Source: Patescibacteria group bacterium | GTDB taxonomy: Bacteria; Patescibacteriota; Patescibacteriia; XYB2-FULL-38-15 | DNA: 64,000 nt | Reading direction: 5' to 3' | Assembly (NCBI GenBank): GCA_041737355.1 | Contig: JBGSRW010000009.1 | Span: 5,323-69,322, forward strand | In this document: piece by piece, positions 4,440-53,134 of the stretch | How positions within the stretch are numbered: position 1 is the first letter of the stretch | How the letters are laid out: every line of letters starts with the position of its first letter | The notes under the pieces: generated by a model | Told to the model about the DNA's origin: nothing | Database searches by the model: none | Seen by the model: only the letters and a program-made list of their open reading frames with translations | Position numbers and translations under genes: made by a program

Positions 4440-5240
4440 ATGGATTTGTCGATAATTATTTTAAACTACAGGGCGCGCGGACTTCTCAAGGAATGCCTTA
4501 AGGGAATAAAAATGGCGCAGCCGAAGATTAATTTTGAAATTATTGTCGTGGATAATGCCTCTGGCGACGGAACGCCGGCCATGATGGAGGAGGGTTTTCC
4601 CGACATCCGTTTTATAGCTTCAGATAAAAATATCGGATACGCCAGGGGAAATAATCTTGGTATCAAGGAGGCGAAGGGCCGTTATGTTATGATTATGAAT
4701 CCGGATATAGTTGTATTCGAGGGGGTTTTTGAAAAATTAGTTGAATTTATGGACGGCCGGCCGGATGTCGGAATTATCGGACCGAAGCTTTTGAATCCGG
4801 ATAAATCTTTGCAGTATTCCTGCTATCGTTTTCCGGATTTTTGGGAGCCGGTTTACCGCCGGACACCGATCGGGAAATTCGGTTTTGCAAAAAAGAAACT
4901 GGATCTTTACTTCATGAAGGATTTTGATCACGCTTCGGTCAGGGAAGTCGATTGGCTTTTGGGTGGATGTTTCCTAATCCGCCGCAAGGCACTGGATGAA
5001 GTCGGGTTGCTCGACGAGAGATATTTTGCTTATTTTGACGATGTTGATTTATGCCGGAGTATGTGGGAGAAAAAATGGAAAGTGGTTTATTATCCTCTCG
5101 TTTCGGTTATTCATTTTCATCGGCGCGAATCGGCCGAGGGAAAATGGTGGAGCGGAATTTTTAAAAAAGTGACAAGAATACACCTCATGAGCTGGCTTAA
5201 ATATTTCGGAAAATGGAGAAAGAGTGAAAAAAATATTTAA
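4440..5240 (+). CDS. Family-2 glycosyltransferase
   Basis: IIILNYR...VDNASGDGT GT-A N-terminus; DDVD motif. Confidence 0.7.
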   Translation: MDLSIIILNYRARGLLKECLKGIKMAQPKINFEIIVVDNASGDGTPAMMEEGFPDIRFIASDKNIGYARGNNLGIKEAKGRYVMIMNPDIVVFEGVFEKLVEFMDGRPDVGIIGPKLLNPDKSLQYSCYRFPDFWEPVYRRTPIGKFGFAKKKLDLYFMKDFDHASVREVDWLLGGCFLIRRKALDEVGLLDERYFAYFDDVDLCRSMWEKKWKVVYYPLVSVIHFHRRESAEGKWWSGIFKKVTRIHLMSWLKYFGKWRKSEKNI

Positions 5241-5263
5241 AATAAATCAGTAGTTTTTTATTT

Positions 5264-7261
5264 ATGAAATTCAGGGGGACAAATTTTTTGGATATTCTTC
5301 ATCCCGAAAGGGCCAAAAAAAGAAGAGTTTTTCTTTTCGTCAGGATTATTTTATATGTTTTTGCTTCGGTCGTGGCGGCAAGTTTGATTTTTTCCGCAAT
5401 TTATTTTTGGACTGTCCGGGACGCTTATAATCTGGCCGATTCGGGAAAGCGCAATCTGGAATTGGCGGTCAGCCGGGCGGAAGCTTTGGATTTTGGCAAT
5501 GCAAACTTTTATTTGTCCGAGGCAAAAAATAATTTTGAAGAGGCCCGGGCCAAGTTTTCCAATCTTAGATTCCTGAAAATTTTTCCCTGGGTTGGCGACC
5601 AATATGGAGCAATAGAAAATTTGATAGAAACCGGCGTTGAAACGTCGTCGGCTTTGCAAGATGTGGTCGGGGTAGTTGGAGACATAGTTAATATCGCCGG
5701 TGAAGCGGAGACGACGCTTGGGGGAGTTCCCGGCATAAATAAAGAAACCAGTTTCGCGGAACTTTCCCCCGAAAAGAAGAGGGAAATCCTTCAAAAATTA
5801 TTTGATTCGGCTCCTCGCCTTGCTTCAGCTGAAATAAAAATAGATCAAGCCCTCGCCTCGCTCAATGAGGTTAAAGAAGGAAGGGTAATCGGCCAAATTT
5901 TTCAAGTCGTGGCTAAAGTGAGGGAAACTCTCCTGAAACTGAAGAACGCGGTTCAAAAAGCCATTCCGGCCGCGGAAATTTTGCCGCAACTCGCCGGCTA
6001 CCCCGAGGGTAAAACCTATCTTTTTCTTCTCCAAAACAGCGACGAAATCAGGCCAACCGGCGGATTTATTGGGACTTACGGAATTGTTAAAGCCAAAGAC
6101 GGAGAAATAAAGACATTTGAAACCGATAACATCTACGCTCTGGACGGCCCGGCGTCTAATTTTTTGAAGATAGACCCCCCGGCTCCGATAAAAAAATATC
6201 TGAAAGTCGGGTCGTGGTTTATGCGCGACTCCAATTGGTCTCCGGATTTTCCGACTTCGGCGGCCAAGGCGGAATGGTTTTACGAAGCCGAGCGCGGAGA
6301 GGAAAAGAAGATTGACGCGGTGGTAGCCGTAACGCCGGCCCTGATTGAAAATATTTTGAGACAAATCGGCAACATAGAAATGGACGGAGCGACTTTTACT
6401 CCAGAAAATCTGATGGATGTTCTCCAATACAAGGTGGAAAAAGAATATTACGAAAAGGGGATTCCTGAATGGCAGCGTAAGGATATAGTCGGAAAATTGG
6501 GAGATAAAATTTTTGAACGATTAGCCAATTTACCGTCGTCGAGATGGTCTGATTTGATAAATGTTGTCAGCGAGGCCCTTGTTCAAAAACACCTTCTTTT
6601 ATGGGGAAAATCCGCGGGGCTGCAGTCGATTATCGCGCGTGAAGGGTGGGATGGAGCGGTCCGCAACACCGACGGAGATTATCTTATAGTCGTGGACGCA
6701 AACCTTGCCAGTTTAAAAACGGACAGCGTAATGGATAAAAAAATATTTTATTCTTTTACAGCCGGGGAGAACGGTGAGGTCCGGGCAAAAGCGGAGATAG
6801 TTTATAAAAACAAAGGCACGTTTACGTGGAAAACTACCCGTTACAGAACTTACACAAGAATATATGTTCCGGCCGGAAGCGTTTTAGTGAAAGGAGCGGG
6901 CATGATGGAAAACGATAAAGTTTCCGATCCGTCGCGCCGGGCAGGCAAAGTTGATGTCGGCGAAGAGCTGGGGAAAACATATTTTGGCGCCTTTATCTCC
7001 ATTGAGCCCGGCGAGGAGAGAACCCTTAGTTTTGAATATGTTTTGCCGGAAAAAATAAAAAATCAGATCCAGGGAGGTTCGTATAAATTGTTTTTCCAAA
7101 AGCAATCGGGCACGACCGGTCACCCCTTGACTTTAAACCTTGATTTTGGTAAAAAGATTAAGCAAGCCGCGCCCGCCGAAGAGTCTAAAGATTGGGGCGA
7201 CGTGGTCTATAAATTACAGACCGACCTAAGAACGGACAAGGAAATAGAAATTAGATTTTAG
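5264..7261 (+). CDS. Large membrane-anchored extracytoplasmic hypothetical protein
   Basis: Single N-terminal TM then a roughly 600-aa soluble region; no confident family call (possibly DUF4012-like). Confidence 0.4.
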   Translation: MKFRGTNFLDILHPERAKKRRVFLFVRIILYVFASVVAASLIFSAIYFWTVRDAYNLADSGKRNLELAVSRAEALDFGNANFYLSEAKNNFEEARAKFSNLRFLKIFPWVGDQYGAIENLIETGVETSSALQDVVGVVGDIVNIAGEAETTLGGVPGINKETSFAELSPEKKREILQKLFDSAPRLASAEIKIDQALASLNEVKEGRVIGQIFQVVAKVRETLLKLKNAVQKAIPAAEILPQLAGYPEGKTYLFLLQNSDEIRPTGGFIGTYGIVKAKDGEIKTFETDNIYALDGPASNFLKIDPPAPIKKYLKVGSWFMRDSNWSPDFPTSAAKAEWFYEAERGEEKKIDAVVAVTPALIENILRQIGNIEMDGATFTPENLMDVLQYKVEKEYYEKGIPEWQRKDIVGKLGDKIFERLANLPSSRWSDLINVVSEALVQKHLLLWGKSAGLQSIIAREGWDGAVRNTDGDYLIVVDANLASLKTDSVMDKKIFYSFTAGENGEVRAKAEIVYKNKGTFTWKTTRYRTYTRIYVPAGSVLVKGAGMMENDKVSDPSRRAGKVDVGEELGKTYFGAFISIEPGEERTLSFEYVLPEKIKNQIQGGSYKLFFQKQSGTTGHPLTLNLDFGKKIKQAAPAEESKDWGDVVYKLQTDLRTDKEIEIRF

Positions 7262-8295: not shown

Positions 8296-9429
8296 ATGCT
8301 TATCGGTATTGACGCCTCACGCGCCAATAAATCGGAGAAGACGGGAACCGAATGGTATTCCTACCATTTGATTCAAGAATTAAAAAAAATTGCTGATCTA
8401 AAAGATCGGTTTATTTTATATTCGAGGGAAAAATTGCGGGGGGATCTCGGGAAACTTTCGGAAAATTGGCAGAGCAAAATTCTTTCCTGGCGGCCAAAGA
8501 AATTTTGGACGCAAATAAGATTATCCTGGGAAATGCGCCGCCGGCCGCCGGAAGTTCTTTTTGTCCCGGCACATACTCTTCCCTTTATTCATCCCCAAAA
8601 AACGGTTACAACCTGCCACGACGTAGCTTTTTTGCGTTTGCCACAAGTTTATGACTGGCCAGCCTTGAAATATCATGAATTAGCCTTAAAATTCGCCCTG
8701 CGCCACGCGACTAAAATCATTACCGTTTCGGAATTTACGAAGAGCGAAATTTTGGAATTTTTTAAAATTTCTCCCGAGCGGATCGCAGTCGTGCCGAACG
8801 GTTATGACAGCAGCCGGTATAAAATAATTGACGATAAAGAGGCAATAAAAAAAGTTTTGGAAAAATGCAAAATCAGCCAGCCGTATATTTTATATGTCGG
8901 CCGCTTGGAACTGAAAAAGAATACGCCGGGTTTGTTGGAGGCGTTTAAAATTTTAAAGAAAAATTTAAAGTCCTCGGCTGAAAATTCTCAATTAAAATTG
9001 GTACTGGCCGGCCAGCCGGGATTTGGTTTTGAAAAAGTTGCCAAAGCAATTGTGGACAATGATTTGCACGATCAAATCATTATGCCGGGCTGGGTGGAAC
9101 CGGATGATTTGCCGTATTTGATGAACGGTGCGAACGCTTTCGTCTTTCCATCTTTCTACGAAGGGTTTGGCATTCCGATTTTGGAAGCTATGGCTTCGGG
9201 CACGCCGGTTGTTTGCTCAGGTATTCCGGCGCTCCGCGAGGTAGCAGGGGAGGCGGCCTATTTTGTCGATCCCTACGAACCGAAAAATATTGCCGAAGGC
9301 ATAGAGCGGGTTCTTGGGGATGAACATCTCCGAGAAGATTTGAGAATCCGTGGGTTGGCCAAAGCGCAGGATTTCAGTTGGGATAGATGCGCCAGAGAGA
9401 CGTGGAAAGTATTGGAAAATTTGAGATAG
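8296..9429 (+). CDS. GT-B fold family-4 (group 1) glycosyltransferase
   Basis: C-terminal EGFGIPILEAMASGTPVV motif typical of the GT4 family. Confidence 0.75.
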   Translation: MLIGIDASRANKSEKTGTEWYSYHLIQELKKIADLKDRFILYSREKLRGDLGKLSENWQSKILSWRPKKFWTQIRLSWEMRRRPPEVLFVPAHTLPFIHPQKTVTTCHDVAFLRLPQVYDWPALKYHELALKFALRHATKIITVSEFTKSEILEFFKISPERIAVVPNGYDSSRYKIIDDKEAIKKVLEKCKISQPYILYVGRLELKKNTPGLLEAFKILKKNLKSSAENSQLKLVLAGQPGFGFEKVAKAIVDNDLHDQIIMPGWVEPDDLPYLMNGANAFVFPSFYEGFGIPILEAMASGTPVVCSGIPALREVAGEAAYFVDPYEPKNIAEGIERVLGDEHLREDLRIRGLAKAQDFSWDRCARETWKVLENLR

Positions 9430-16885: not shown

Positions 16886-17659
16886 ATGAAAAAAAAGATT
16901 TTTGTCGCCAACTGGAAAATGAATCTTTCGGTTTCCGAAGCGGCCGATCTTACCGGGAGTCTCGGGAAAGAGCTCGGGAAGCTTGATTTGGGAAAAGTGG
17001 AAATTGTTCTTTGCCCTTCATTCACTTCGCTTTTTTCTTTGCATGAATTATTGGAAGCGGACAACCCGGCGGATTTAAAATTGGGAGCGCAGGATGTTTT
17101 TAGGGAAGAAAAAGGAGCTTTTACCGGAGAAATATCCCCGAAGATGCTTGAAGATGTCGGCTGCAATTATGTAATTGTCGGCCATTCGGAGCGGAGGGTG
17201 AATTTCGGCGAAACTGACGAAACGGTTAATCAAAAAGTCAAAGCCGTCCTAAAGCACGATATTACCCCGATAATATGCGTCGGAGAAACTTTTGACGAGA
17301 GGCAGAAGGGTCTGAGAGACGTTATAGTCGCGAGACAAACCGGCAAGGCGCTTCACGGCGTCGAGCTTTTTGGCAATAAAAAAGTAATTATTGCCTACGA
17401 ACCGATTTGGGTGATAGGAACGGGCCAGGCGGTCATTCCGGAAGATGCTGATCACTCGCACCGGATCATCCGCGAGGCGCTTCTTGAAATTTTCCCGGTC
17501 GATATCGTCGAAAAACATTTCCGGATCATTTATGGAGGGAGTGTTGACAGTAAAAATATCAAAGATTTTGTTGAACAGGAGGGGATTGACGGAGTTTTGG
17601 TCGGAGGAGCATCGCTTAAAGTCGACGAATTTGTTAAAATGATAAAAGGGATTGTCTAA
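16886..17659 (+). CDS. tpiA: Triosephosphate isomerase
   Basis: FVANWKMN start, AYEPIWAIGTG motif. Confidence 0.9.
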   Translation: MKKKIFVANWKMNLSVSEAADLTGSLGKELGKLDLGKVEIVLCPSFTSLFSLHELLEADNPADLKLGAQDVFREEKGAFTGEISPKMLEDVGCNYVIVGHSERRVNFGETDETVNQKVKAVLKHDITPIICVGETFDERQKGLRDVIVARQTGKALHGVELFGNKKVIIAYEPIWVIGTGQAVIPEDADHSHRIIREALLEIFPVDIVEKHFRIIYGGSVDSKNIKDFVEQEGIDGVLVGGASLKVDEFVKMIKGIV

Positions 17660-17679
17660 AAATTTCAAAAAATAAATTC

Positions 17680-18549
17680 ATGCCGATTGTCCACATAAAA
17701 AATTTAGTCAAAGGAGCCGAGCGCGGCAAATACGGGCTTGGCGCTTTTAATACGCAAAATCTTGAAATCACATTGGGGATTGTCCGCGGCGCGGAGCGTA
17801 TGGAAGCGCCGGTCATAGTCCAGGTGAGCGAGGCAACAATAGATTACGCCGGATTAAAACCGATTACCCATATCGTAGAGACAGTGGCAAAAAATTTAGC
17901 CTTGCGGGCTCCGATGGCGTTGCATTTGGATCACGGCAAGAAATTCCAGTCAATCGTCGAGTGCATTAAAGCCGGTTTTTCCTCGATTATGATGGACGCT
18001 TCGGATTTACCTTTTGATGAAAATGTCGCCCTGACCAGGAAAGCGGTTCAGTATGCCCATAAACACGGCGTTTGGGCCCAAGGGGAATTGGGAAGACTGA
18101 AAGGAATCGAGGATACGGTAAAGGTTGCCGGACGGGACGCTTTCATGACTCACCCCGACGAGGCGGCGGAGTTCGTCAAAAAAACCGGAGTTGATACCCT
18201 GGCTGTTTCTATAGGCAATATCCACGGAATCGTTAAATTAAGAAAAGGGGTCCCCAAACTTGACTTGCAAAGACTGAGGGAAATTTCCCGGAAGGTAGGG
18301 ATTCCGCTCGTTCTGCATGGCGCCTCCGGTATAAAAAAAGACGAAATAGAAAAAGCGATAAAATTAGGAATTAAAATTATCAATATTGATACGGAAATCA
18401 GGCTGGCTTTTACCGAATCCCTGAGAAAGACTTTGGCTGGCGACCGACAGATATACGATCCGCGCAAGGTTTTATCGCCGGCGATAAAAGAAGTTGAAGA
18501 AATTGTTTCCGCAAAGATAAAAATTTTTGGCAGTGAGGGTAAATTTTAA
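17680..18549 (+). CDS. fba: Class II fructose/tagatose-bisphosphate aldolase
   Basis: GAFN.. N-terminus, HLDHG metal-binding motif. Confidence 0.8.
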   Translation: MPIVHIKNLVKGAERGKYGLGAFNTQNLEITLGIVRGAERMEAPVIVQVSEATIDYAGLKPITHIVETVAKNLALRAPMALHLDHGKKFQSIVECIKAGFSSIMMDASDLPFDENVALTRKAVQYAHKHGVWAQGELGRLKGIEDTVKVAGRDAFMTHPDEAAEFVKKTGVDTLAVSIGNIHGIVKLRKGVPKLDLQRLREISRKVGIPLVLHGASGIKKDEIEKAIKLGIKIINIDTEIRLAFTESLRKTLAGDRQIYDPRKVLSPAIKEVEEIVSAKIKIFGSEGKF

Positions 18550-18629
18550 ATAAAAAAATTAAACATTGAAAATTATCCGCCCGAGGCGGGTTCGCCTCTC
18601 GAAGCGGAGGAATTTAAAATTATATATTT

Positions 18630-19415
18630 ATGTCTCCTTACGATATTATTCCGCTAGTGATCATAGTTGTTTCCTTGGCCTTTATTATTTTTATAATTGT
18701 CAGAAAATTTCCTGTTTTGGCGGCAATCGACATCGGGTCGATAAAGAGTGAACAGGAGGCGGCAAAAAAAGAGGAGATTATCGCGTCCCGCCTGGAAAGA
18801 AAAATTACCGGTTTTGGAAATTTTTTATCCAAAGTTTTTTCTCCTCTTGGCGAATTTTTTAAAAATATTTTTAAAAAAGTCCATGGCCGGGCGCGGAGCC
18901 TGGAAGCCGAGTATGTCAAGAAAAAAGACAAGGAAGCGTCATCTCCGGCCGAAATCGAACAAAAAATAAAATCATTGTTTTTTTTGGTTGAAGAACTGGT
19001 CAAAGAAAAAAAGTTTGATGAAGCGGAGCAAAAATGCATAGAAATAATTTCCTTTGATCATAAGAACACCGACGCTTACAAAAAATTAGGATTTATTTAT
19101 CTCGAACAGAAAAATTATAATAATGCCGAAGAAACATTTGCTCATATTCTCAAATTGATTCCCGACGATGTGGAAACCTTGATTGATTTGGGGCTTCTCC
19201 TTAAGCAGCGGGACGAAAAAGAAAAGGCCCTGCAAAGTTTTTCCAGAGCAGTTGAAATTGAACCGACAAATCCCAAAAACCTTGATTTTTTAATTGAGAT
19301 AAGTATAATGGTAGGGAATAAGGGTTTGGCTTCAAAAACGCTCGAAAAGCTGAAGGAAGTCAACCCCGAGAATCAGAAGTTGGAAGAACTGGAGGAAAGA
19401 ATAAAAAATATTTAG
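18630..19415 (+). CDS. TPR-repeat protein with N-terminal TM anchor
   Basis: TM segment then TPR-like repeats (AYKKLGFIYLEQKNYNNAEETF..); the 3' end lies within an 85-bp direct repeat. Confidence 0.6.
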   Translation: MSPYDIIPLVIIVVSLAFIIFIIVRKFPVLAAIDIGSIKSEQEAAKKEEIIASRLERKITGFGNFLSKVFSPLGEFFKNIFKKVHGRARSLEAEYVKKKDKEASSPAEIEQKIKSLFFLVEELVKEKKFDEAEQKCIEIISFDHKNTDAYKKLGFIYLEQKNYNNAEETFAHILKLIPDDVETLIDLGLLLKQRDEKEKALQSFSRAVEIEPTNPKNLDFLIEISIMVGNKGLASKTLEKLKEVNPENQKLEELEERIKNI

Positions 19416-19418
19416 AAA
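19334..19418 (+). repeat. 85-bp direct repeat, copy 1 (3' end of TPR gene); copy 2 at 20350-20434
   Basis: Identical aaaaacgctcgaaaagctgaaggaagtcaaccccgagaatcagaagttggaagaactggaggaaagaataaaaaatatttagaaa at both sites. Confidence 0.85.
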
Positions 19419-19422
19419 TTGT

Positions 19423-19776
19423 ATGGATAAAAATGAAGTAGACAACTATTTAAAGAACAAAACGGTTCTTCACCCTGCCATTTTGAAAGTATGGGAAGAA
19501 CTTTCTGACAGGGGAGCATTAAAAGGACTTTCTGATGATGAGGTTTTGGAGGTTGTGGTCTCCGTTTGTGAGGGGTTGATAAAAAGCAAGGGCGGGAATC
19601 TCGATTATAACGGAGGGAAACCTTTTGATGAATCGGATATTCCTACGGAGTTTTACATGCACGAATCTGACCCGGAAAATTCTGTAAAATTTACAAAAGA
19701 GCAAACCGACCAAGTGAATGAGTATGTAAAGAACCATCCCGACGAGGGGCTTTGGAAAATCGCCTACGACGAGTAA
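19423..19776 (+). CDS. Small acidic hypothetical protein (inside the repeat-bounded insert)
   Basis: 117-aa D/E-rich ORF with no recognisable domain. Confidence 0.4.
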   Translation: MDKNEVDNYLKNKTVLHPAILKVWEELSDRGALKGLSDDEVLEVVVSVCEGLIKSKGGNLDYNGGKPFDESDIPTEFYMHESDPENSVKFTKEQTDQVNEYVKNHPDEGLWKIAYDE

Positions 19777-19965
19777 AGAAGTGTTGAAAGGTATTATTTA
19801 GAGGTTTTAGGGCTATCGCCTCGCTGGCGAAGGATTTATAGGGCAAAGTGGGGCTGGTGGTGTAACGGAGGAGGACTTAGTTCGTCAAAAGGAGTAGAAA
19901 CCACCTGGGCGAGGTATCTGGACGATATACAAGTAAGACGGACAGTTAGCAGCCCTTCCGGACTC

Positions 19966-19994
19966 TTGACAAATTCCTGAAAATGTGGTATAGT
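19966..19994 (+). promoter_or_regulatory. Sigma70-type promoter (TTGACA-17-TATAGT) followed by a roughly 110-nt structured leader
   Basis: cTTGACAaattcctgaaaatgtggTATAGT; the leader contains a long stem gggtaaggatt...aatccttatcc and the hairpin gcgtttcacaagaacgc. Confidence 0.55.
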
Positions 19995-20119
19995 AATTAA
20001 ATATGCGTAAATCTTGTGTCATAATAACTTCTAATAGGGTAAGGATTGGCTCGGCTGAAAGGTCGGTCGCGTTTCACAAGAACGCTCGCAAATCCTTATC
20101 CGATTAGAGGTTTTTTGTT

Positions 20120-20431
20120 ATGAAGCGTGGCTATATAAGGGTATGGAGAAAAATTTTTGACAATCCCCTTTCGAATAAGCCAGCTTATATGTGGCTCTGG
20201 TTGTCGCTTTTGCTTTTAGTAAATCATAAATCAAAAGAGATTATGTGGAACGGCGAAATAATAATAATTAGGGAGGGACAACTTTTAACTGGCAGGAAGG
20301 AATTATCAAGACAAACTGGTATTCCTGAGTCAACTATTGAGGATATTTTAAAAACGCTCGAAAAGCTGAAGGAAGTCAACCCCGAGAATCAGAAGTTGGA
20401 AGAACTGGAGGAAAGAATAAAAAATATTTAG
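20120..20431 (+). CDS. Winged-HTH replication-initiator/replisome-organiser N-terminal-domain-like fragment fused in frame to repeat copy 2
   Basis: Pattern AYMWLWLSLLLLVNHKSKEIMWNGEIIIIREGQLLTGRKELSRQTGIPESTIEDILKTL resembles plasmid/phage Rep or DnaD-type N-terminal wHTH; the last 27 aa are identical to the TPR protein C-terminus. Confidence 0.4.
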   Translation: MKRGYIRVWRKIFDNPLSNKPAYMWLWLSLLLLVNHKSKEIMWNGEIIIIREGQLLTGRKELSRQTGIPESTIEDILKTLEKLKEVNPENQKLEELEERIKNI

Positions 20432-20434
20432 AAA
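20350..20434 (+). repeat. 85-bp direct repeat, copy 2
   Basis: See copy 1 at 19334-19418. Confidence 0.85.
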
Positions 20435-20491
20435 ATGTAAATTTCGGGAAGAAAGATTTTTTGGTTTTTCCCGGCAAAGATTAAGGATTTT

Positions 20492-20567
20492 GCCGTTGTA
20501 GCTCAGCTGGTAGAGCAACTCCATGGTAAGGAGTAGGTCGCCGGTTCAATTCCGGCCAACGGCTCCA
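20492..20567 (+). tRNA. tRNA-Thr (anticodon GGU)
   Basis: Cloverleaf: GCCGTTG acceptor stem, anticodon loop aTGGTaa, GGTTCAATTCC T-arm, CCA encoded. Confidence 0.85.
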
Positions 20568-20619
20568 TTCTATCGTAAAATTGAAAAACTCTGCGTAAAA
20601 GTAGGGGAAGCCAAAGCAT

Positions 20620-20702
20620 GGGCAGGTACCGAAGTAGTCAAACGGGGCAGACTGTAAATCTGCTGGCTTACGCCTTCCAAGGTGCAAATCCTTGCCTGCC
20701 CA
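20620..20702 (+). tRNA. tRNA-Tyr (anticodon GUA)
   Basis: GGGCAGG acceptor stem, anticodon loop cTGTAaa, long variable arm, TGCAAATCC T-loop. Confidence 0.8.
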
Positions 20703-20705
20703 TTT

Positions 20706-20778
20706 GCCAGCGTAGCTCAGTTGGCAGAGCAACGGTTTTGTAAACCGTAGGTCGTCGGTTCAAATCCGACCGCTGGCT
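20706..20778 (+). tRNA. tRNA-Thr (anticodon UGU)
   Basis: GCCAGCG acceptor stem, anticodon loop tTTGTaa, GGTTCAAATCC T-arm. Confidence 0.85.
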
Positions 20779-20803
20779 TTTGAGATTAATACATTAAAAT
20801 TTT

Positions 20804-20959
20804 ATGTCCCAGGAAAATTTAATCAAATTAGAATGTTCGGTCTGTAAACGGGTCAATTATTTTTCGCACAAAAATAAAAAGACATTGAAAAACAGACTGG
20901 AGATGAAGAAACATTGCAAGTGGTGCAAGAAGCACACGCCGCATAAGGAAACTAAATAG
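20804..20959 (+). CDS. rpmG: 50S ribosomal protein L33 (51 aa; below the ORF-track cutoff)
   Basis: Translation MSQENLIKLECSVCKRVNYFSHKNKKTLKNRLEMKKHCKWCKKHTPHKETK carries the L33 CxxC...CxxC zinc-ribbon signature. Confidence 0.8.
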   Translation: MSQENLIKLECSVCKRVNYFSHKNKKTLKNRLEMKKHCKWCKKHTPHKETK

Positions 20960-52979: not shown

Positions 52980-53134
52980 GGGGCTGTAGCTCAAAGTCTG
53001 AAACAGCGTTTGGTAATGGCTTAGGTCATGACCAGCGCCGTAGACGAAGCAGAGCATTTGGGGGAAGGCGCGTGAGAGTAACTACTGGCGCCCGAACCAG
53101 AAGGTTGGAGGTTCAAGCCCTCCCAGCCCCGCCA
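52980..53134 (+). ncRNA. 155-nt tRNA-like element: perfect 7-bp acceptor stem, canonical T-arm and CCA, with about 80 extra structured nt where the D and anticodon arms should be
   Basis: 5' GGGGCTG pairs with 3' CAGCCCC-G-CCA; T-arm GGAGGTTCAAGCCCTCC; the interior contains hairpins (gctgt..acagc, ggtcatgacc, ctgg..ccag) but no standard cloverleaf. Confidence 0.5.

Follow-up and report, generated by a model that had tools for sequence, protein, structure and literature searches.

A phage-derived insert bracketed by a duplicated TPR-gene 3′ end, upstream of clustered tRNA genes in a single Patescibacteria strain

Between a TPR-repeat protein gene and a conserved tRNA cluster, a single strain of a bacterium of the Patescibacteria (CPR) carries a foreign, phage-derived, and heavily truncated insert that is bracketed by the duplicated 3′ end of its target gene (Table 1). 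The inserted unit measures 1016 bp, i.e., the 931-bp insert plus one copy of the repeat. With a probability of roughly 0.55, this unit is the remnant of a phage-like integrative element that duplicated the target 3′ end at integration and then underwent an internal deletion. In what follows, the window is the whole 64-kb stretch of DNA that was analyzed.

Table 1. Features of the insertion locus; positions are those of the window.
Feature	Position	Strand	Basis or remark
Intact gene for a TPR-repeat membrane protein of 261 aa	18630..19415	+	Pfam TPR_1, E=3.4e-13
Conserved sigma-70-like promoter TTGATT-16-TATAAT inside the TPR coding sequence	19282..19309	+	Promoter scan, 10/12
Direct repeat, copy 1	19334..19418	+	Includes TPR 3′ end and stop codon, plus 3 nt; aligned to copy 2 and to sister strain L001
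Insert, 931 bp	19419..20349	+	Without counterpart in the sister strain or any relative
ORF117, acidic 117-aa protein, pI 4.5	19423..19776	+	Rare small-protein family
Non-coding spacer, G+C slightly raised	19777..19965	.	No RNA family or structure detected
Near-consensus element promoter TTGACA-17-TGgTATAGT	19966..19994	+	11/12 consensus plus TG extension; consensus match alone
Long imperfect hairpin leader, then U-run	20020..20122	+	MFE -42.2 kcal/mol, z=-5.66
ORF103	20120..20431	+	Residues 1-77, phage DnaD-like helicase loader N-terminal HTH; 78-103, duplicated TPR tail
Direct repeat, copy 2	20350..20434	+	Left edge is junction J2; right flank matches the empty site
tRNA-Thr(GGT), tRNA-Tyr(GTA), tRNA-Thr(TGT), and rpmG, conserved cluster	20492..20959	+	tRNAs 20492-20778, rpmG 20804-20959

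As originally predicted, two exact copies of 85 bp flank an insert of about 930 bp; both the repeat search and the alignment recover them, and the chance occurrence of such a repeat is negligible. Beyond the exact core, the repeat search extends the similarity to a 93-nt pair (19331-19423 and 20347-20439) with two mismatches, which lie at the outer edges only (19333/20349 and 19419/20435). Copy 1 contains the last 26 codons of the TPR gene and its stop codon, and the protein it completes matches the orthologues of relatives in length and at the C-terminus. When the locus is aligned with the sister strain, the right edge of copy 2 and the left edge of copy 1 together give the allele of the empty site. 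Mismatches confined to the outer edges, combined with these empty-site edges, are what is expected from a single crossover inside a shared segment. Two other origins of the repeat were ruled out: a target-site duplication of the transposon type, since 85 bp is far too long and terminal inverted repeats are absent, and tRNA-targeting integration, since the repeat stops 57 nt before tRNA-Thr and holds no tRNA sequence. Neither the window nor any of the fetched loci has a second copy of the insert.

The ancestral state of the site is empty. The comparison with sister genomes that had been proposed as a check gave a direct answer: the contig of a sister strain, 96.8% identical, has a single repeat copy at a clean empty site, and this site is 100% identical over 120 nt to the right flank that follows copy 2. 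Collinearity with a further relative (L066) is interrupted solely by ∼1.02 kb, the distance from the TPR gene to the next gene being 1583 nt here and 560 nt there. The TPR gene is kept beside tRNA-Thr in ∼118 related Patescibacteria loci. A diverged duplication in all relatives was the observation that would have pointed to an ancient tandem duplication; none of the 118 loci carries one, and that origin is ruled out. In relatives with 61-74% identity, the spacing from the TPR stop codon to tRNA-Thr is the canonical 46-59 nt, to be compared with 60 nt after copy 2. In the sequence searches, duplication and insert occur together in one genome only, and these comparisons mark the 1016-bp unit as an insertion that is recent and specific to the strain.

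What does the insert encode? For one of its two open reading frames, ORF103, the original prediction had pointed to a winged-HTH domain of replication initiators, and profile searches agree: the protein matches phrog_2514, “DnaD-like helicase loader”, with E=1.9e-17 and 64.4 bits, over residues 1-90 and profile positions 1-95 of 270. The same profile recognizes its closest relative, P0002 (62% identical; E=1.1e-25), and the proteins of two phage contigs, L002 and L003 (56-59% identical to the fragment; E=1e-35 and 1.6e-32), which cover profile positions 1-152 to 1-190. Nothing closer than P0002 was found among 5.8 billion proteins or in IMG/VR. The full-length relatives, 225-250 aa on the two phage contigs, occur on IMG/VR contigs of 37-58 kb beside lysis, HNH, FtsK-like, and NinG-like genes, and annotated phages name the homologue a DnaD-like helicase loader. 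From sequence similarity, then, the N-terminus of ORF103 is identified as a fragment of a phage DnaD-like helicase loader, or replisome organiser. Pfam models stay below their thresholds: neither Phage_rep_O (PF04492) nor Phage_rep_org_N (PF09681) matches ORF103, HTH families fall below their curated cut-offs, P0002 reaches 16.2 bits with Phage_rep_O (cut-off 28.7), and the L002 protein reaches 17.9 bits with Phage_rep_org_N (cut-off 23.3). A sequence search of the PDB for the winged HTH gave no match, and the AlphaFold model of P0002, built on a two-sequence alignment (pLDDT 66), had no Foldseek match in the PDB at E≤0.001.

This fragment is only about one third of the protein. Its alignment with P0002 and the two phage-contig proteins stops at residue 77-82, ahead of the conserved KYR(I/V/L)ITI wing, so that the complete architecture of winged HTH, wing, and C-terminal part is not present. 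Compared with the loaders of PHROG 2514, 186, and 7498, which are related to Phage_rep_org_N and lambda O-type initiators, the ∼77 N-terminal residues align with the HTH origin-binding domain, whereas 26 residues of the TPR tail stand in place of the wing and of the C-terminal part that interacts with the helicase. The frame does run into copy 2, as first noted, but the shared tail is 26 aa long (K78-I103) rather than 27; the residue ahead of it is L in ORF103 but S in the TPR protein. Most likely, the fragment is non-functional as a replication protein.

The point where the two genes meet, J2, bears directly on whether the repeats are attachment sites. A target direct repeat flanks a strain-specific insert, as in an attL-attR pair, but excision does not restore intact element genes: the repeat includes the TPR stop codon, and a circle released by excision would still carry the Rep gene cut at residue 77, compared with 225-250 aa in the relatives. 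Because the TPR stop codon lies within the repeat, the Rep/repeat junction cannot be the original att boundary, and the right-hand boundary does not stand as an attR. It looks instead like a product of microhomology. Where the TPR tail reads SKTLEKL, the Rep relatives read IL[KE]xLE[KRS][ER], and at the nucleotide level the common pattern is A AAA nnn CTn GAA A (ILKxLEK vs SKTLEKL). J2 thus appears, from its sequence, to be a secondary illegitimate junction, probably formed at the microhomology ILKxLEK. The alternative of a site-specific gene fusion, also raised in the original prediction, finds no support here, the simplest account of the in-frame fusion being that it arose incidentally, through recombination at similar codons.

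Could the whole arrangement have arisen in the computer? The window comes from a metagenome-assembled NCBI contig of 70,185 bp, and 85 bp is below the largest common k-mers and above the smaller ones; an assembler might have gone once around a graph loop created by an 85-bp sequence common to the chromosome and another molecule. An exact loop of 931 bp, however, needs a real molecule with the repeat on both sides, either the integrated structure or a 1016-bp circle. Moreover, the microhomology of a few bases at J2 is too small for a k-mer join, and both flanks fully agree with the independent contig of the sister strain. An assembly artefact is, in our judgment, very improbable.

The preferred origin, a decayed integrative element, would involve two steps. 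In the first, a temperate phage or integrative element that itself contained 85-93 bp or more of the TPR 3′ end would have entered by Campbell-type recombination, leaving the TPR gene intact and the segment duplicated as attL and attR, as with e14 and phage 21 at icd. In the second, for which the structure of the junction is visible, an internal deletion or illegitimate recombination would have fused approximately codon 77 of rep to the start of the right-hand repeat, joining at a short microhomology, with loss of the integrase and nearly all of the cargo. What would remain is ORF117, then the promoter and hairpin leader of rep, and last the N-terminal, DNA-binding third of the helicase loader, extended by 26 residues of the TPR tail.

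A close parallel is known from E. coli: prophage e14 inserts itself into icd at the 3′ end, which it replaces with an end of its own, and 163 bp of icd′ are left in duplicate (PMC6379469). The likeness lies in an element placed in the 3′ end of a protein-coding gene that is kept intact by a copy at both ends, as in e14 and phage 21, and, as for cryptic (“grounded”) prophage remnants such as e14, in a degraded element that is present or absent between strains. The differences are also evident. The duplicated segment here is 85-93 bp; e14 retains an integrase and 15 kb of genes, whereas the present insert has 0.93 kb and no recombinase; the right-hand junction is a secondary fusion within a replication gene and not an att boundary; the att nature of the repeat is a matter of deduction; and the host is a Patescibacteria (CPR) bacterium. 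On this reading, the locus is ordinary prophage decay, well documented by the empty site of the sister strain, and it changes nothing in what is known of how such elements work. Its value is of another kind. To our knowledge, there are few records of lysogeny and of mobile-element traffic in Patescibacteria (CPR), and here a clean, small, phage-derived insertion is seen as a presence/absence polymorphism between two strains ∼3% apart, with both junctions resolved to the single base. Together, a duplication of the att type and a deletion at a microhomology may leave a tiny scar with a chimeric open reading frame.

The integrative-element reading would gain from an integrase or a parent element, and neither was found. 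No integrase, excisionase, or other mobile-element gene is present in the insert, which contains just ORF117 and the Rep fragment, or in the ∼10 kb around it: within -11/+10 kb there is no integrase, and the genes from 8.3 to 30.4 kb all have syntenic orthologues in L066. Likewise, no integrase adjoins the TPR gene in the 118 related loci, which, scanned for TPR-3′ duplications and enlarged TPR-tRNA spacers, gave no sign that this 3′ end is used recurrently for insertion. One of them (L020) has a serine-recombinase-like open reading frame 5 kb away, beside tRNA-Trp and unrelated. The search for an intact element and its attP, suggested at the outset, returned neither: a 44-nt exact core had 0 matches in IMG/VR, the 85-bp repeat core was found on no phage contig, the DNA of the insert matched none of 50,697 phage records, a scan of genome contigs for Rep gave no match, and look-ups by exact sequence yielded no contig for P0001, P0002, or the TPR protein. 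In the metagenome collection, the scan covered the TPR gene only. The scar of an integrative element, as first proposed, is therefore upheld as regards a foreign, phage-derived, truncated insert in a duplication of the target 3′ end; its origin by an integrase is not, with no integrase, parent, or recurrent att site found, and with Rep relatives at no more than 62% identity.

These gaps give some weight to an insertion that needed no integrase at all. Phage or island DNA, delivered by transformation or abortive infection, may have been joined at two microhomologies by double illegitimate recombination, or by homology-facilitated illegitimate recombination (HFIR) with the TPR gene as anchor and a lysogen junction as donor; in either route, 85 bp of host sequence would be duplicated and attP would never have been present in the lineage. 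J2 is necessarily illegitimate, with microhomology at the codon level, so parsimony does not strictly demand an integrase at the other junction, and this junction, J1, also has a short match, TGTA, after one mismatch. The repeat copies are identical at 85/85 positions although the sister strain differs by 3.2%, which also fits a duplication of host sequence without attP. The mechanisms are established in naturally transformable bacteria, as stated in PMC8116780, where double illegitimate and homology-facilitated recombination are referred to de Vries & Wackernagel 2002 and Hulter & Wackernagel 2008. Products in Acinetobacter baylyi and Streptococcus pneumoniae resemble the present locus in having microhomology of a few bases beside a homologous anchor and in needing no recombinase gene, but these events usually delete recipient DNA, whereas here 85 bp was duplicated. 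Other points stand against this explanation. The origin of an 85-bp target duplication in one step would be unusual; mismatches at the outer edges are the product of a crossover between pre-existing similar segments; and the HFIR variant still requires a lysogen donor with the junction of TPR 3′ end and ORF117 (attL). From work on Acinetobacter, illegitimate insertion is very rare relative to prophage integration and decay. An integrase-free insertion is possible, if rather unlikely.

The second reading frame of the insert, ORF117, is the acidic protein of 117 aa that had been noted at first inspection. An exhaustive search of 1.84 billion proteins gave 11 weak homologues, whose alignment has the motif NPxILKVWE..G.L.GLSDDE.LE.VV. 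No domain was matched in Pfam, PADLOC, or NCBIfam, the best PHROG match had E=0.016, and the AlphaFold single-sequence model reached a pLDDT of 51. Members of the family reside in variable islands adjoining Zeta toxin, RhuM, or AbiEii genes, and some precede Zeta toxin or RhuM genes. A role as the antitoxin of a toxin-antitoxin pair is not supported: the window has no toxin gene after ORF117, and no recognised antitoxin domain is found with Pfam, PADLOC, or NCBIfam. The family was not found in IMG/VR, and its contigs are Patescibacteria-like, with housekeeping and defence/toxin genes, and not viral, a point that counts against the integrative-element reading.

Between the two reading frames, the spacer gave no Rfam match and folds no better than its shuffles (z=+0.36), and the region 19760-20130 has no convincing iterons or other repeats, just short pairs at chance level. 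The strong promoter of the original prediction is there as a consensus match; in the promoter scan it is the best site of the region, and it is oriented toward the Rep fragment and then the tRNA cluster. The structured leader of ∼110 nt that had been expected after it was also found, and in none of 200 shuffles was the fold as stable. The leader contains an inverted repeat, I1, of 28 nt, and its U-run overlaps the RBS and the ATG of the Rep fragment, the GAGG ribosome-binding site being sequestered in the predicted fold. On this model, the leader would serve as an attenuator, a terminator, or a translational-control element. A strong promoter, a stable hairpin of ∼100 nt, and a U-run over the rep RBS are also features of plasmid and phage rep leaders, which act by attenuation or RBS sequestration; in contrast to these, the present leader matches no Rfam family and has no conserved counterpart ahead of the nearest rep relatives. 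Of the latter, the rep of L002 is without an intergenic leader, and that of L003 has an unrelated terminator and a short leader. At a permissive threshold, Rfam returned only sau-19 for the hairpin, with 31.7 bits where the gathering score is 80, and this was taken as a chance match.

Upstream of the insert, a second promoter lies within the TPR gene itself, with a predicted start at ∼19316, 17 nt before the repeat. Its DNA block is near-invariant in nine relatives in spite of 61-74% protein identity, and of the synonymous third positions, those of 7/7 codons within the block are invariant, as against 11% outside it (Fisher p=1.6e-6). These patterns suggest that the tRNA-Thr/Tyr/Thr-rpmG cluster probably has its native promoter here; the cluster follows copy 2 directly, as had been stated, with tRNA-Thr starting 60 nt past the stop codon in copy 2. 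The insert now stands between the two, and would sit within the transcribed leader of the cluster. As a consequence, and because its ATG is 8 nt past the TPR stop codon, transcription of ORF117 probably starts at the promoter embedded in the host gene, while the tRNAs would probably be expressed by read-through, from the element's own promoter, or both.

Has the unit then acquired a use? As a functional cassette, the 1016 bp might excise and re-integrate via the 85-bp repeats, or be retained by co-option, with its promoter feeding the displaced tRNA operon or the Rep fragment and leader RNA acting as a decoy against related phages. On a circle, the order promoter, leader, ORF103, ORF117 would form a compact, co-oriented operon under one near-consensus promoter; ORF117 belongs to a conserved protein family and hence is not a random open reading frame; and the conserved embedded promoter has been cut off from tRNA genes that are single-copy, while a strong promoter is now ∼500 nt upstream of them. 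Yet there is no recombinase and nowhere a second copy, the structure is seen in one genome only, the Rep fragment is without the wing and downstream part that all relatives retain, recombination at similar codons is enough to produce the in-frame fusion, and the hairpin with its U-run would tend to halt transcription from the element promoter. We therefore hold a functional cassette to be very unlikely. As for co-option of the remnant, the deletion might have been selected as it brought a near-consensus promoter within ∼500 nt of the tRNAs, and/or the Rep domain and leader might interfere with related phages. This is unlikely too; if true, the interference with phages would turn the locus into a domesticated immunity module of minimal size, in a CPR bacterium.

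The embedded promoter is a by-product of this study, and it may turn out to be more useful than the remnant whose insertion falls within its transcription unit: a promoter of the sigma-70 type, preserved from species to species at the synonymous sites of a conserved TPR gene, marks the likely start of the tRNA-Thr/Tyr/Thr-rpmG unit in this group.

The locus is in kind the scar of a degraded prophage or integrative element, with an att-like duplication of a gene 3' end, and what it still contains is one accessory ORF and a replication gene reduced to a pseudogene. A repeat search returned a pair of 93 nt at 98% identity (19331-19423 and 20347-20439), whose two mismatches, at the third and fifth-from-last positions, lie outside an exact core of 85 bp (19334-19418 = 20350-20434), which confirms the exact copies of the original prediction. 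Copy 1 consists of the final 26 codons of the TPR gene, its stop codon and three further bases, and 931 bp separate it from copy 2, which is followed by tRNA-Thr(GGT), Tyr and Thr(TGT), and then rpmG. ORF103 is indeed fused in frame to copy 2, but the tail that it shares with the TPR protein has 26 residues, not 27; this is the sole correction to the predicted layout, whose acidic ORF, promoter, leader, tRNAs and rpmG all hold. The long hairpin terminates in a U-run that covers the GAGG ribosome-binding site. Besides this hairpin, the non-coding parts of the insert matched no Rfam family and showed neither a significant fold nor iterons.

Features of the TPR gene and of the sequence between and across the repeat copies (window positions)
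Feature	Position	Size or location	Remarks
TPR-repeat membrane protein gene	18630-19415	261 aa	TPR_1 E=3.4e-13
Predicted promoter TTGATT-16-TATAAT	19282-19309	inside TPR gene	sigma-70-like; second-best match in region
ORF117	19423-19776	between copies	pI 4.5
Non-coding stretch	19777-19965	between copies	
Promoter TTGACA-17-TATAGT + TG extension	19966-19994		11/12 matches, region's best
Long hairpin	20020-20122		MFE -42.2 kcal/mol, z=-5.7
ORF103	20120-20431		reading frame continues into copy 2

This locus is a recent insertion. The TPR protein of the window clusters with a single other sequence (P0005, 97% identical, Logan assembly of SRR29054603). The contig that encodes P0005, L001, a sister-strain contig of 1795 bp that is 96.8% identical to window 17659-19423, has one repeat copy and then directly the sequence found 3' of copy 2, its last 120 nt matching 20350-20469 at 100%: this is the clean single-copy site that had been proposed as a check. 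About 118 related loci, drawn from genomes and metagenomes, keep the gene order TPR, tRNA-Thr(GGT), Tyr, Thr(TGT), and in none of them (0/118) is the TPR 3' end duplicated downstream. The spacing from the TPR stop to tRNA-Thr is 46-59 nt in the seven nearest relatives (protein identity 61-74%), and 60 nt in the window when counted from the stop codon of copy 2. L066, a 94-kb contig of a relative, is collinear with the window over 8.3-30.4 kb, the one difference being that the next protein gene lies 560 nt from the TPR gene there and 1583 nt from it in the window. Spacing, lack of duplicates and collinearity together identify the empty state as the ancestral one. By the same collinearity, the ~10 kb to each side lack strain-specific genes and hence an integrase. 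The host is a Patescibacteria bacterium, and its relatives carry Kerfeld-, Uhr- and Falkowbacteria labels. In GenBank, many MAG records under the title "uncultured Gammaproteobacteria bacterium" (L012, L014, L018, L019 and other "binchicken" MAGs) contain a Patescibacteria-type locus syntenic with the window, and their organism labels look wrong.

As for ORF103, it matches PHROG 2514, "DnaD-like helicase loader" (E=1.9e-17), over profile positions 1-95 of 270 only. Of 5.8 billion proteins, only P0002, a fragment from soil, is closely related to it (62% identity); in addition, relatives of 250 and 225 aa (56-59% identity) come from two IMG/VR contigs, 37 and 58 kb long. These match the profile over positions 1-152 to 1-190 (E=1e-32 to 1e-35) and are surrounded by phage genes, for an endolysin, a holin, a tail protein, HNH, FtsK-like and NinG-like proteins. 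Weaker-matching genes in annotated phages bear the name DnaD-like helicase loader, and Pfam Phage_rep_O and Phage_rep_org_N gave matches below threshold only. The Rep part of ORF103 is the N-terminal third, ending before the conserved wing KYRxITI. The profile match and the phage-contig relatives thus support the predicted Rep-like winged-HTH fragment at the family level: it belongs to the PHROG helicase loaders by sequence, not by architecture. On the 58-kb phage contig (L003), which encodes the closest full-length Rep relative, tRNA Gln, Asn and Trp lie at 8950-9394, closely upstream of the NinG-like and rep genes.

How did this fragment become joined to a host gene? The copies differ from each other at their outer edges only, where the chromosomal side has the empty-site allele in each case (C at 19333 and A at 20435, both as in L001), a pattern that is the trace of a single crossover inside a segment common to two molecules. 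The TPR stop codon is inside the repeat, so a circle excised via the copies would encode Rep to residue 77 plus the TPR tail, and all Rep relatives extend another 150-190 residues beyond that point. Given the stop and these longer relatives, the junction of Rep with copy 2 must, on sequence grounds, be a secondary illegitimate join and not the original attachment-site boundary. Here the relatives have IL-K/E-x-L-E-K/R/S where the TPR tail has S-K-T-L-E-K-L (in DNA, CTA AAA TTT CTA GAA AGT in phage contig L002 vs TCA AAA ACG CTC GAA AAG); had the two been joined at 5-15 nt of imperfect microhomology, the fusion would be in frame automatically.

We favor a history in two steps, with a probability of about 0.55. 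A phage or integrative element that bore a TPR 3' end of its own would have integrated in the Campbell manner, for which the textbook parallel is e14 in icd, where a 163-bp duplicated icd' is left (PMC6379469); a deletion would then have started inside rep and ended inside the right-hand copy. On this reading, the original common segment would have been at least 85 bp long. Illegitimate recombination of a DNA fragment, whether double or homology-facilitated, is known in transformable bacteria from references in PMC8116780 and would need no integrase. This is the main rival, though less likely: its rarity and the edge mismatches speak against it, while what speaks for it is that neither an integrase, an attP nor an intact parent was found in the IMG/VR, phage records and genome contigs searched, that the site is not recurrent among related loci, and that the copies are perfectly identical. 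Less likely than both are a functional or co-opted mini-cassette, which is very improbable, and, still more so, an assembly loop, which would still presuppose that a molecule in which the 931 bp stand between two repeat copies really exists.

Of the four tested features that define an integrated element with attL/attR, three were not found (a recombinase, the attP form, and att boundaries at both ends), so that the 1016-bp unit is described as working like, and is probably descended from, such an element, and not as an intact member. The predicted integrative-element scar is well supported as an observation and partly supported as an interpretation. The locus is a tidy case of mobile-element decay in a CPR genome, of modest interest.

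A noteworthy by-product is the conserved predicted promoter inside the TPR gene, 25 nt 5' of the repeat and at the same position in L001, L011, L012 and L066-L073. In nine relatives with TPR proteins only 61-74% identical, hardly any variation is seen in the DNA block CTTGATTTTTTAAT.GA.AT.AGTATAAT.GTA. Over the whole gene 8% of third codon positions are invariant, and a 10-codon sliding window peaks at 60%, at 19278-19284; for codons with an invariant amino acid, the third position is invariant in 7/7 within the block vs 11% of 89 outside (Fisher p=1.6e-6). This is strong comparative evidence that a functional DNA element overlaps the coding sequence. Given its match to the promoter consensus and where it lies, it probably drives the tRNA-Thr/Tyr/Thr-rpmG cluster, from which the insert separates it. 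If so, the 85-bp repeat would be the 5' leader of that transcript and the insert would sit within the transcription unit; ORF117, with its ATG 8 nt 3' of the TPR stop, would probably be expressed from the host promoter, and the tRNAs would rely on 1-kb read-through, on the element's own promoter, or on both. A terminator-like hairpin lies 3' of the element's promoter. The idea that the deletion was selected for restored tRNA expression is invited, not established.

The window and L001 differ by 3.2% over 1765 nt, yet at 0/120 positions in the last 120 nt (19334-19453 / 20350-20469, repeat plus spacer), where about 4 differences are expected (P ~0.02), which is suggestive of a constrained tRNA-operon leader or of a recent local exchange. 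Within this group, the tRNA cluster itself appears variable: 1.3-8 kb of genes lie between the Thr/Tyr/Thr tRNAs downstream of the TPR gene in L013, L024, L035, L045, L062, L063, L077, L114 and L123, with small HNH-like ORFs (HHILPRSRGG motif) directly 3' of tRNA-Thr in L035 and L063. In L015 and L075 an ORF of this type is 3' of the TPR gene, and no tRNA was found within 2 kb downstream. Elsewhere in the window, Rfam scores the 152 nt of 52980-53131 (+) as a tRNA at 38.2 bits, which exceeds the gathering score, with insertions of 56 nt in the D-loop and 35 nt in the anticodon loop; ARAGORN made no call here. Candidate explanations are a decayed tRNA and a tRNA gene interrupted by introns or insertions.

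The other gene of the insert, ORF117, had no match in a word-index search, and an exhaustive HMMER search of 1.84 billion representatives recovered 11 proteins of weak similarity (E=7.5e-7 to 1e-3). Most have 50-99 aa, and those that are short have the motif NPxILKVWE..G.L.GLSDDE.LE.VV in common. Where the surroundings were readable, P0006 is 3' of an unannotated 287-aa gene amid housekeeping genes, in the same MAG as the outgroup locus L012; P0019 directly precedes a Zeta-toxin gene; P0014, in a restriction/defence island, shares 4 nt with the beginning of a RhuM gene; and P0012 adjoins AbiEii. The IMG/VR contigs have no member of the family. Judged by these relatives and their contexts, ORF117 is a genuine small accessory gene of variable islands. 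The neighbors hint at an antitoxin-like or regulatory role, as a lead only, and no toxin gene lies 3' of ORF117 in the window. The sites beside Zeta-toxin, RhuM or AbiEii genes are L143 10001-10816, L141 2735-4128, L142 237-1630 and L144 6971-7934, and the islands at all four hold restriction-modification genes. Downstream of the ORF117 homologue on L139, an otherwise A+T-rich related Patescibacteria contig, a conspicuously G+C-rich non-coding block of ~350 nt (5120-5470), with no Rfam match at the gathering threshold, could be a divergent structured RNA.
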